In this document: positions 13,439 to 15,900 of the stretch, piece by piece
How positions within the stretch are numbered: position 1 is the stretch's first letter
How the letters are laid out: each line of letters starts with the position of its first letter
Assembly (NCBI RefSeq): GCF_003334765.1
Contig: NZ_QOWT01000050.1
Direction: 5' to 3' (one strand)
DNA from: Escherichia coli
Lineage (GTDB): Bacteria > Pseudomonadota > Gammaproteobacteria > Enterobacterales > Enterobacteriaceae
Length of the DNA stretch: 19,733 nucleotides
Made by a program: the position numbers and the translations under genes
Notes under the pieces: model-generated
Seen by the model: the letters and a program-made list of their open reading frames with translations, nothing else
The model's database searches: none
What the model was told of the DNA's origin: nothing

Positions 13439-13653
13439 TGCCGGTTGTTTCCGGAAGGTGCGGCAAAATACGGAAATGATGATACCCCCGGCCCTGCATG
13501 CTCACCTGCAGAGCGTGTTCGTCGTCATCATACTGAGCCATGACGGATGTCTTAAGGGCATCCTGTCATTGCTGAGCTGGCATGCTGCGGTACATGCCTC
13601 ACCCTGGTGACAATAAGTACATGGCGACAGTGCTCCCTGCACCGCAAAAGAGA

Positions 13654-13806
13654 TGTACACGGCCGGATGTTATTGCTGAATGTTTCTTCGTCAGATATTC
13701 AGGAACAGTTGTAGTAACGAATTTTACCGATCTCTGTACACGGCCGGACGCCGTCAGTGTATACGGGCGGACGTTCCATGCTGCATGACTACATCCGGCC
13801 CGGATG
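13654..13806. repeat. GC-rich short repeats: TGTACACGGCCGGA(T/C)G twice (13654-13669, 13735-13750) plus palindromic CATCCGGCCCGGATG (13792-13806)
   Basis: Direct repeats 81 bp apart and a related palindrome, in an ORF-poor region. The GCCGGATG core resembles part of enterobacterial REP/BIME elements; that resemblance is partial. Confidence 0.4.
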
Positions 13807-15228
13807 TCAATGAGTCCGTCAGGAACGCTTCGCTTCGAAACCCGGCCTGGATACCAGCGCCGGCACGCCGGGAAGAAGTTGATATGGTGGTTGCCGGACA
13901 ACAGCGCTCCTGGATTGACTGCTGCATCACTCAACCACGCTGAATATCAAAGGAGAGCGTTACCGATTAAAAGAGAAACGGAAAGCTGTGGTGATGACCC
14001 AAAACAACACGACAATCAGTGAGGATGGAATGGTGAAAATCAGACTGCATCAGTGTAGAAAATATACTGGCTGGCATGAAAATGGCCCGGCTCGTGGCGT
14101 TGACATATTCTCTCCTGAGCATCCTGAATGACTGCAGTTGCTGTGGAAAAGTAAGCAGTCTCCACCCACGGCACCACTTAACAGACATTCAGTAACTCAC
14201 CCCAGACTTTCTATAACGCTTATCGGTGCACTGAAAACAGGAGAGTGCGCTTAAAACCGCAGACCGCATTGCGGGTGTTACTGCATGACAGCCTGGCGGT
14301 ATTGTGAGATGTCGGCAGGAACCGATGTCTGCGCAGGGGGAACTTCCGTGATCGGGATAAGTGCAGAAGAAATCAGATCACGACGTAAACCTGCAGTGCC
14401 TGACGCTGCAAGTGGCATTAACCATGGGACGTTGCCGATCCCGGATTGCGGAAACAGGAGCACTATTTTCTGCCGCGGGGAGTACCTCTGGCAGTAAATC
14501 CGGCTCGCTCATCTGACCGTCTCTCTCCCGGAAAAGACCAGAAATGAGATCGTCACCTCAACAGCAGGGAAGATGTCTTGACAGACTGGTTATATTGCAT
14601 ACGATTTATGAAGAAAAAGACAGCAAATATGGAGGCTATAGCGGAGAACACCCTACGAAATTCCTGTGAAAAACGATTGAAAAAACGATCAGATTCGATT
14701 CGTTTTTATATGCTTTTTGGGCACGTGGCGATGACGAACTGTTGCATGTGCAGAGGAGAATGCACCCGGAAGCACCAGAATCATCCAGAAAGGCAGAACG
14801 ATTACGCATCAAACCAGGAGACAGCAATATCAGGATAACATACTGATTTAAAATGAATTTACAGCAATACGTGAAAACATTTTTTACTTAAAGGAGACAG
14901 ATGCGCTGAAGACAGTGCAGGTATTTTTATATAAAAATGAGAAGGTTACGGGATGTCTATCCGGCACACTATGACCGGAGAATATCAGTCAGGCTTAAAA
15001 AGACAATAAATACAGTGAGTTAAATACACAGAGAAAACGAAAACGTAGTATCAGAGGGTACATCTTACAACAGAGACTGAATTTCCGGTTTTTCATAACC
15101 GGCACATTCCGGAAAGAGCAGGCTAACCGGAGGCTTTCTGACACCAGTCCCTGGCAGTTTAATCTGTACATCATGTACGGATGTTTTGTTCGCATTTTTA
15201 AAATCGGCAAAAATGCGAGAAGAGCAGC

Positions 15229-15446
15229 TATATTGTGGATGAACTGAAAAGTGCCCGGGAGCAACAAAAAAGGCGTGATGAACGTGCTGATGGTTCCGTT
15301 CCGCTGAAACTGTCCGGAAAAATCCACAAACAGCCTGAAAGTATTGCCCGAAGTCGTGGTGCCCCCCAAAAAAACTGTTGAATGAAATGATTGAGCTGGC
15401 GTACCAGGATTTTGTGGCAAATGAGCAGCACAAGACTCGGAGTTAA
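15229..15446 (+). pseudogene. Frameshifted small ORF (possible RHH-type regulator remnant) interrupted at an A7 homopolymer
   Basis: One frame reads ...YIVDELKSAREQQKRRDERADGSVPLKLSGKIHKQPESIARSRGAPQK and stops at 15379-15381; the -1 frame continues KKLLNEMIELAYQDFVANEQHKTRS* to 15446. The junction is the A7 run at 15368-15374. No ATG start upstream. Confidence 0.3.
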
Positions 15447-15900
15447 AGACTGCAGGGTCCCCGGTTACCAATTCTGCAACGTACACAACGAATGCATCCG
15501 GCTCTTACCTGTGAGGGGCACGAAAATTATACATTGAGCATGAGTGGATAATCTCGGGTGAGAGTCTCCCGTTTTTACACTATTCACTAAAGGTGAGGCA
15601 TATCATTCAGTCTCTCTGAATTCTTCATTTCAGTAACTTCAGCTACCGTCGTTTCATCTCCCCCACGAACCGGGGCCGCAACTTGTTGTATCAATACCAA
15701 ATTGTTGGTCATTACTGTCCTGTATCACTGGGCTGACAAGTGAACTGAAATCCGCACCTTAATATTCTGACTGGCTGCGTACATTCATGGCATGAAGCGG
15801 CCGGAGCGGCTGAGCTGAAGGTCCGTTGTGAGCGAGGAGTGATCATTAGCCTCTCAGCCGGATGCCTTAAAGAGCGTACGCCAGAAATAAAAGGATTGCG

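Follow-up and report, generated by a model that had tools for sequence, protein, structure and literature searches.

What occupies positions 13440-15900 of the window, by which we mean the whole 19,733-nt stretch of Escherichia coli DNA analyzed here, is the question raised by this locus. A sequence-only reading had described the stretch as ORF-poor, with GC-rich direct repeats and a palindrome, and had found no recognisable similarity in it. The ORF-poor description holds, as the longest ORF in the region encodes only 163 aa (14995-15486, minus strand) and is itself spurious, since it runs antisense across a deletion junction. "GC-rich" is apt for the short repeats only, the stretch as a whole having a GC content of 0.40-0.53. 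The absence of similarity was a mistake, as matches to IstB, to istA and to a 390-aa gene of related islands were all found in the region. Five pieces make up the stretch, namely a non-coding flank that we call segment X, an IS21-family remnant, a spacer, the stump of an orphan gene and a conserved 3' flank. We are thus highly confident that the stretch reflects the ordinary decay of an E. coli genomic-island backbone, consisting of an IS21 wreck, a spacer and an orphan gene inactivated by deletion. Part of this content is already annotated in RefSeq, where PGAP annotates in this region only a fragment of an AAA-ATPase (IstB) and a hypothetical protein with a frameshift.

The window is part of a chromosomal island of E. 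coli that belongs to the CP4-44 / flu-yee type. In the RefSeq annotation of identical DNA (L001 and L005), the neighbours are a YeeP-like GTPase, Ag43, DUF932, antirestriction, RadC/JAB and CbeA/CbtA genes, while YagK/YfjJ, Hha-like and AlpA-like genes lie to the left of the stretch in identical or near-identical E. coli chromosomal segments. The stretch is located between an AlpA-like regulator and a 205-aa gene (12821-13438) on one side and, on the other, the cargo slot that precedes the YeeP-like GTPase and Ag43 genes. A search of plasmid collections returned three unannotated matches and a search of phage collections returned none. Nissle 1917 is listed among the genomes that carry a segment of the window type. 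At the right-hand side, the orphan gene is followed by a conserved, non-coding 3' flank (15447..15835, no strand assigned) with homology to related islands. This homology ends at 15835-15839, which marks a cargo-swap junction. Positions 15836..15900 are then the first bases of a strain-specific cargo module that extends from 15836 to ~19509 and encodes an MFS transporter, an alpha/beta hydrolase and a LysR protein.

At the left-hand side, segment X (13440..13759, no strand assigned) is non-coding and flanks the 205-aa gene at its 3' end. It is 95% identical to L002 4561-5316, with divergence thereafter, and its right end is cut off where an illegitimate junction joins it to the IS remnant. The segment is longer in L002 and L007, and its right ends vary among related islands. 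No family was matched by segment X in a six-frame NCBIfam scan. The candidate explanation that segment X is a diverged piece of IS21 or IS100 was rejected, as local alignments scored no better than shuffles. In identical genomes, PGAP calls a 66-aa hypothetical protein ORF at 13341..13541 on the minus strand (L001 13902-14102, minus), whose span takes in the 3' end of the 205-aa gene as well as the beginning of the stretch; this call is probably spurious.

The IS21-family remnant (13760-14105) follows directly and consists of istA codons 85-134 fused to istB codons 214-265, together with an intact right terminal repeat. As a reference, we used IS21 as annotated on plasmid pEc1077-278 (L006). 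The istA' fragment (codons ~85-134; 13760..13902, plus strand) is 82% identical to IS21 by blastn (L006 1947-2094, E = 2e-35), with a translated match to codons 85-121 (tblastn E = 8e-5), and carries stops and frameshifts. In L003 and L004 this fragment is longer, beginning at codon 41. The 'istB fragment (codons 214-265; 13898..14053, plus strand) is 71% identical by tblastn (E = 2e-19) and 85% by blastn. It also matches NCBIfam NF006616 with E = 3.6e-8, well under the curated cut-off because the piece comprises only 52 residues. An in-frame stop interrupts this fragment, which PGAP labels as an 'AAA family ATPase' pseudogene. The two fragments are joined by an internal deletion of ~1.4 kb (IS21 nt 2095-3506). 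The right end of the element (14054..14105, plus strand) carries the terminal inverted repeat TGGCGTTGACA at 14095-14105, with 14 of 14 positions matched between 14092-14105 and IS21 (L006 3710-3723).

Membership in the IS21 family should be considered with the state of the element in mind: istA and istB are present as fragments only, in the correct order and on the same strand; of the terminal repeats only the right one is found; and the reading frames are broken by the ~1.4 kb internal deletion, a 5' truncation and in-frame stops. The left end of the element was not found in the window or at any related locus examined. As both fragments carry stops, the remnant is unable to transpose. L002-L004, L007, L010 and L014-L017 all carry this istB 3' piece together with the right end, and the left breakpoints vary by lineage (IS21 nt 1811, 1947, 2023 and 3505). 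Being common to many island variants, the remnant is thus old, and the combination of a shared right end and lineage-specific left breakpoints could serve as a set of phylogenetic markers for the history of the island variants.

The direct repeats noted in the stretch are real. Copy 1 (TGTACACGGCCGGATG, 13654..13669, plus strand) and copy 2 (TGTACACGGCCGGACG, 13735..13750, plus strand) have an exact 14-mer in common, lie 81 bp apart and thereby bound an 81-bp unit within segment X. Copy 3 (TGTATACGGGCGGA, 13758..13771, plus strand) matches the repeat at 12 of 14 positions, and from 13760 on it corresponds to the istA codons YTGGR, identical to IS21 itself. An exact 14-mer direct pair separated by no more than 150 bp was obtained in 2.7% of dinucleotide shuffles of the window; the repeat cluster is therefore above chance, although only modestly. 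The palindrome that was claimed is likewise real (CATCCGG-C-CCGGATG, CATCCGGCCCGGATG, 13792..13806, no strand assigned), with two perfect 7-nt arms, ~0.03 chance matches expected and a DNA hairpin z-score of -2.26. At the aligned positions, IS21 has CATCCAGCCCAAACG and L003 has CATTCAGCCCGGACG. L003, L004 and IS21 do not have the palindrome, and in L005, which is 99% identical to the window, it is imperfect; it arose through point mutation of istA codons.

Repeats and palindrome together invite the explanation that they form a functional DNA site, either att- or oriT-like, as the sequence-only reading suggested, or an array bound by a regulator of the island such as the AlpA-like protein. Three related copies do lie within 120 bp, in a cluster of a kind that few shuffles reproduce; the perfect palindrome is located 20 bp downstream of the repeats; and the excisionase-like AlpA gene is only 0.9 kb upstream. 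Nonetheless, the sister lineages L002 and L007, in which this flank is preserved, have only degenerate versions of copies 1 and 2 (at copy 1, L002 reads AGTACACGGCTGGATG and L007 reads CTCACACGGCAGGATG). Moreover, 68 complete genomes have lost one copy together with its spacer; the IS brought in the istA codons of which copy 3 and the palindrome consist; and the palindrome is no longer perfect even in the near-identical L005. There are no conjugation genes in the part of the island in view, and the comparisons made here already largely show the motif to be missing from islands with the same regulator. We therefore regard a functional site as highly unlikely. No independent function is left for these motifs: mutated istA coding sequence accounts for copy 3 and the palindrome, and copies 1 and 2 lie in a non-coding flank.

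That the repeats are ordinary REP/BIME elements, also suggested earlier, should be weighed against the same features. The window has four occurrences of the 8-mer GCCGGATG (complement CATCCGGC), a component of the E. coli REP consensus, all of them inside the stretch, as compared to 0.6 expected for the whole window. However, searches with the REP consensus were empty: neither the full palindrome nor its conserved half was matched with up to 3 mismatches allowed. The copies are not imperfect palindromes of ~35 bp, and no hairpin is formed by copies 1 and 2. In addition, one of the 8-mers lies in istA-derived sequence and another in the cargo module, past the homology break. We thus give REP elements next to no credence.

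Rather than a functional site, what the repeats appear to provide in the decaying backbone is an opportunity for deletion. The deletion in L005 corresponds exactly to the 81-bp unit bounded by the two copies, so that one copy and the 65-bp spacer are gone, and this single-copy allele is present in 68 complete genomes. Judging from the structure of the allele, copies 1 and 2 would permit deletion by strand slippage or through short homology, and the allele may be viewed as a worked example of a 14-16-nt direct repeat driving small deletions. When copies 1 and 2 are compared with the outgroups, the substitutions are clustered and are all towards greater mutual likeness and likeness to the istA copy. 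Simple neutral decay would not predict this pattern; a templated or conversion-like event may have taken place at the junction, or the outgroups may have diverged.

Downstream of the IS21 right end lies the unannotated spacer (14106..15234, plus strand), which is collinear with L002, L003, L004 and L010 and probably includes the promoter and leader of the orphan gene. No ORF conserved across the collinear lineages was found in the spacer, nor was any family matched in the six-frame NCBIfam scan. Two small ORFs, 14578-14838 (86 aa) and 14742-14846 (34 aa), were considered as coding candidates and rejected, as the differences between lineages, counted by hand in the lineage alignment, all fall at codon positions 1 and 2; a 2-bp insertion in L002 also truncates the 86-aa ORF. 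The searches made assigned no origin to this ~1.1 kb of sequence, some of which may be functional, for instance as a promoter or leader; this is a point against reading the whole stretch as decay.

The core of the spacer, at ~14470-15110, raises an explanation that is compatible with backbone decay elsewhere in the stretch, namely that it is a functional non-coding region, either a promoter with a long leader or a small RNA gene. Nucleotide diversity in the core is low (pi of 0.02-0.04, as compared to 0.08-0.13 in the flanks), and the core is found at full length, with at least 93.5% identity, in 2091 of 5426 complete E. coli genomes; it is unannotated in every RefSeq genome inspected. A promoter-like site (TTGACA-16-TACGAT, 14578-14605) and a hairpin followed by a T-run (14902-14929) are both conserved. 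Against this, low diversity was rejected as proof of constraint, as patches of the orphan gene and the dead IS21 remnant are equally uniform (pi ~0.035); mosaic recombination can therefore explain the pattern. The counts of promoter-like and terminator-like sites are at the level of shuffles, as are tandem repeats, and RNA folding of the core is unremarkable on both strands (z = -0.96 and -0.49 relative to shuffles). One spacer hairpin that was checked loses pairs in L003 with no compensation. Rfam 15 gave no match at gathering score anywhere in the window; at E <= 1 the only hit in the region was a chance one to CRISPR-DR13, scoring 27.9 bits as compared to a gathering score of 37. Finally, no homologue of the spacer was found upstream of the Citrobacter koseri orthologue. 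On this evidence, a functional core is unlikely. The more specific proposal, that the ~640-bp core is a functional non-coding element (a long leader, promoter region or small RNA) serving the orphan gene and the YeeP/Ag43 module, we hold to be distinctly unlikely. A possible regulatory role of the conserved core is, nonetheless, the only point in the stretch with some biological interest.

The spacer leads into the stump of the orphan gene (15235..15446, plus strand), in which the GTG start codon runs directly, in frame, into codon ~313 of a gene of ~390 codons. Positions 15232-15443 match the final ~70 residues of a 390-aa protein of related islands (E ~ 1e-29). A deletion of ~950 bp removed the middle of the gene, such that the start and the last ~70 codons remain, and a frameshift at ~15363-15372 disrupts the stump further; PGAP lists it as a 'frameshifted; incomplete' pseudogene. 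The gene is intact, at 380-392 aa, in L002 (6966-8141), L003, L004, L010 and L014-L017. Searches of Pfam, NCBIfam and PHROGs with the intact 390-aa homologue gave no family, and a protein-database search revealed an orphan family limited to E. coli and a few Enterobacteriaceae.

With these pieces in place, one can return to the suggestion that the stretch is decayed coding sequence left by the integrase of the island or by a larger cargo gene. As a description, decayed coding sequence is correct for about one quarter of the stretch; the identity proposed for it is not, as the coding remains belong to istA and istB of IS21 and to the orphan gene. Intact homologues indeed reveal the gene stump and the IS portion to be simply diverged or deleted coding sequence. 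An integrase would suit an ORF-poor region inside a mobile island whose integrase is not in the window. However, the six-frame NCBIfam scan (E <= 1) returned IstB only, with no tyrosine or serine recombinase, and none of the related genomes inspected has a PGAP-annotated integrase pseudogene. All decayed genes identified are those named above, and we consider a lost integrase or larger cargo gene very improbable.

Taking the homologies, the junction coordinates and the 81-bp deletion allele as observed, we infer in what order the events took place and how each deletion came about. In an ancestor of many island variants, an IS21-family element would first have landed between the 205-aa gene and the orphan gene of ~390 aa. 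An internal loss of ~1.4 kb would then have fused istA to the 3' end of istB, after which the left part of the element was presumably lost through illegitimate deletions that differed between lineages, with the junction in the window falling at istA codon 85. In the lineage of the window, the ~950-bp deletion, followed by the frameshift, would have destroyed the orphan gene. The cargo module (MFS, hydrolase, LysR) lies immediately to the right. The seemingly empty 2.4 kb of a common E. coli island backbone can thus be read as the wreck of an old IS21 followed by a spacer and an orphan gene that was deleted recently. The significance of this reading is slight beyond annotation hygiene.

When compared with known systems, the remnant keeps the order and orientation of istA and istB of IS21, 82-85% DNA identity and the right terminal repeat, and differs in that ~350 bp of roughly 2.1 kb are left, with the left end and istA codons 1-84 missing. 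The allele of L005 and the 68 genomes resembles short-direct-repeat deletions (slipped-strand, RecA-independent) in being likewise bounded by a direct repeat of 14-16 nt. The right-hand gene set is the same as in CP4-44 of E. coli K-12 and in the flu/yee modules of the GI-pheV type. The K-12 CP4-44, however, shows zero DNA match to the window, and the AlpA gene, the 205-aa gene, the IS21 remnant and the 390-aa gene represent a backbone variant that is missing from K-12. The flu/yee modules of GI-pheV-type islands have a mosaic, modular structure in which IS remnants occur and recombinational diversity is high (PMC11537424), and the window is built in the same manner.

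The stretch at 13440-15900 is ordinary island decay: the remnant of an old IS21-family element, a spacer, and an orphan gene that was deleted recently. The sequence-only reading had described an ORF-poor region; its statement that nothing there has recognisable similarity was mistaken, as IS21-family istA and istB pieces and the stump of the orphan gene were all matched. Its suggestion of decayed coding sequence was right as to kind and wrong as to identity, since what decayed is an IS21-family element and a deleted orphan gene rather than a lost integrase or cargo. The 2,461 bp are 100% identical to chromosomal DNA in many E. 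coli strains, parts of them are contained in 3,360 of 5,426 complete genomes, and two of the pieces already carry pseudogene flags in RefSeq. The overall GC content of the stretch is not high (0.40-0.53), and the longest ORF (163 aa, minus strand) spans a deletion junction.

The stretch was compared with a full-length IS21 from an E. coli plasmid (L006). An istA fragment at 13760-13902 is 82% identical to nt 1947-2094 (codons 85-134; E = 2e-35) and is followed directly on its 3' side by an istB fragment at 13899-14086. This corresponds to IS21 nt 3507-3693 at 85% identity, running from istB codon 214 through the end of the gene and 29 nt beyond, while the right terminal repeat at 14092-14105 agrees with IS21 at 14 of 14 positions (final bases ...TGGCGTTGACA). 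In translation, IstB is matched at E = 2e-19, and the same residues are matched by the NCBIfam IstB models. The element has therefore lost about 1.4 kb of its interior, together with its left end and codons 1-84 of istA. In the PGAP annotation the istB piece appears as an "AAA family ATPase" pseudogene, and the istA piece in L003 as an "IS21 family transposase" pseudogene. The istB 3' piece and the right end are kept in all related islands examined (L002-L004, L007, L010, L014-L017), whereas the left breakpoint falls at IS21 nt 1811 in L003, L004 and L007, 1947 in the window, 2023 in L002 and 3505 in L010, and L007 retains more of istB as well. The insertion is therefore old and its decay lineage-specific. 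In several lineages a live IS100, also of the IS21 family, is inserted into this dead remnant at two or more different sites (L003 3037-4991; L014; L016 about 1645); the 5-bp target duplication CAATG in L003 and L014 lies 3-4 nt from the position of the window's X/istA junction (IS21 nt 1947).

Left of the remnant lies segment X (13440-13759), the non-coding 3' flank of a 205-aa hypothetical gene (12821-13438), without significant similarity to IS21 or IS100. Segment X is 95% identical to L002 and diverges exactly at 13758/13760; as it runs about 260 bp further in L002 and L007, the X/istA junction of the window is an illegitimate deletion junction, with a microhomology of 1-3 nt in our reading of the alignments. 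Opposite the 3' end of the 205-aa gene, on the minus strand, PGAP also annotates a 66-aa hypothetical (13341-13541); this ORF has no family support and is probably an over-call.

The two 16-mers at 13654-13669 (copy 1) and 13735-13750 (copy 2) and the 15-nt palindrome at 13792-13806 do exist as described. When the window is shuffled with its dinucleotide composition kept, 2.7% of the shuffles contain two exact 14-mer copies no more than 150 bp apart, and the chance expectation for the palindrome is about 0.03. A third copy (12/14 match) lies at 13758-13771; its sequence, TATACGGGCGGACG, is the one that IS21 itself carries in istA, where it encodes YTGGR. The palindrome likewise consists of istA codons, which are CATCCAGCCCAAACG in IS21 and CATTCAGCCCGGACG in L003; it arose in this lineage through point mutation, and is already imperfect in the 99%-identical L005. 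Copies 1 and 2 both lie within segment X, and their positions in L002 and L007 (AGTACACGGCTGGATG / TGCACATGACCGGGCT and CTCACACGGCAGGATG / TGCACATGGCCCGGCT) can barely be called repeats. In L005 exactly 81 bp are missing, namely one repeat copy plus the sequence between the copies, a pattern characteristic of deletion between two short direct repeats; in a junction search, 68 complete genomes showed this single-copy form and roughly 260 the two-copy form. An att or oriT-like site finds no support, given the degenerate repeats in L002 and L007 and the loss of one copy in the deletion allele, and neither do REP elements, as copies 1-3 and the palindrome do not match a REP consensus. Relative to the outgroups, every substitution in copies 1 and 2 makes them more alike, and those in copy 2 bring it closer to the adjacent istA copy. 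A templated or conversion-like repair event at the deletion junction is possible, as is divergence of the outgroups. Across 13735-13771, compared with L002 5294-5330 and L007, about 6 clustered substitutions fall in copy 2 and 2 in copy 1, each of them towards the neighbouring istA motif. The motif GCCGGATG occurs four times, always inside this stretch; as one site is IS-derived and another lies within the cargo module, we regard this clustering as coincidence.

At 15235-15446, related islands hold an intact hypothetical gene of 380-392 aa. Alignment of the window to them breaks off at 15226 and resumes at 15238, leaving out about 950 bp of the gene. The GTG start (15235, used by some annotations) now runs in frame into codon ~313, and the ~70 codons that remain are disrupted by a frameshift at about 15363-15372. 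The intact protein has no family in Pfam, NCBIfam or PHROG and is restricted to E. coli and a few Enterobacteriaceae. In L010-L012 (E. coli) and Citrobacter koseri the gene lies directly upstream of a YeeP-like GTPase gene.

Between remnant and stump, the 1.1-kb spacer (14106-15234) is collinear across all carriers and annotated nowhere; it has no ORF conserved between lineages and no family match, and no counterpart was found upstream of the Citrobacter orthologue. Across five lineages its core (14470-15110) is clearly more uniform than the flanks (pi 0.02-0.04 vs 0.08-0.13), and 2,091 genomes match it at 93.5% identity or more. The core holds a TTGACA-16-TACGAT site (14578-14605) and a hairpin with a T-run (14902-14929). 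A special function is argued against by promoter-like and terminator-like counts equal to shuffle expectation, by folding of neither strand better than shuffles, by an Rfam search that found nothing, by two candidate small ORFs in which a hand count on the alignment placed substitutions only at first and second codon positions, and by equally low diversity in the dead IS21 remnant and in patches inside the orphan gene. Mosaic recombination, documented for flu/yee modules (PMC11537424), explains the pattern; a putative promoter or leader of the orphan gene is plausible. At 14892-14930 a strong Shine-Dalgarno-like AAGGAG precedes a two-codon ORF, ATG CGC TGA, overlapping a 7-bp hairpin and a T-run. 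This arrangement is kept in the five lineages compared and could be what is left of a gene start or a small element resembling an attenuator. Near 15170, a tandem unit of 9 bp (TTCTGTACA or TTCTGTACC) occurs in L002, L003 and L004 but not in the window or L010; it lies within a terminator-like hairpin just upstream of the orphan-gene start.

In more than 1,000 genomes, homology to other islands ends at 15835-15839. This is a cargo-swap junction, and the window has a cargo module (about 15836-19509) between the orphan gene and the YeeP-like GTPase. The slot, from the orphan-gene 3' flank to the GTPase, has sharp boundaries at 15835-15839 and about 19509-19596, and holds MFS/hydrolase/LysR, dynamin-family or GNAT/DUF2971 genes, or an ABC iron-uptake cluster with a TonB-dependent receptor, depending on the island; L010 carries no cargo and has only an 84-bp gap.

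RefSeq annotation of the identical (L001, strain A20) and 99%-identical (L005) loci places the stretch within a chromosomal island, with YagK/YfjJ-domain, zinc-ribbon, Hha-like and AlpA-like (excisionase/HTH) genes to its left. To its right lie the MFS transporter (15901-17136, minus strand), an alpha/beta hydrolase and a LysR regulator, and further on the YeeP-like GTPase, Ag43, DUF932, antirestriction, RadC/JAB and CbeA/CbtA module. The far end of the island adjoins yghD/gspL, which we take to be the pheV neighbourhood. In A20, ISEc62 (IS21-like; L001 6566-8728) interrupts a zinc-ribbon gene (window about 8000-8250) and is absent from the window, so the window's strain differs from its top match outside the stretch. 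The window also carries an intact ISL3-like ISEc38 transposase gene (3733-5352), adjoined by a decayed transposase fragment (about 5400-5760) that PGAP labels a Mu transposase domain pseudogene; by tblastn, 5410-5725 (minus strand) resembles the ISEc62 IstA C-terminus (residues 286-390, 82-92% identity) and would be a second IS21-family remnant. The island hosting the stretch is of the flu/yee type, and such islands are mosaics of modules with insertion sequences between them (PMC11537424).
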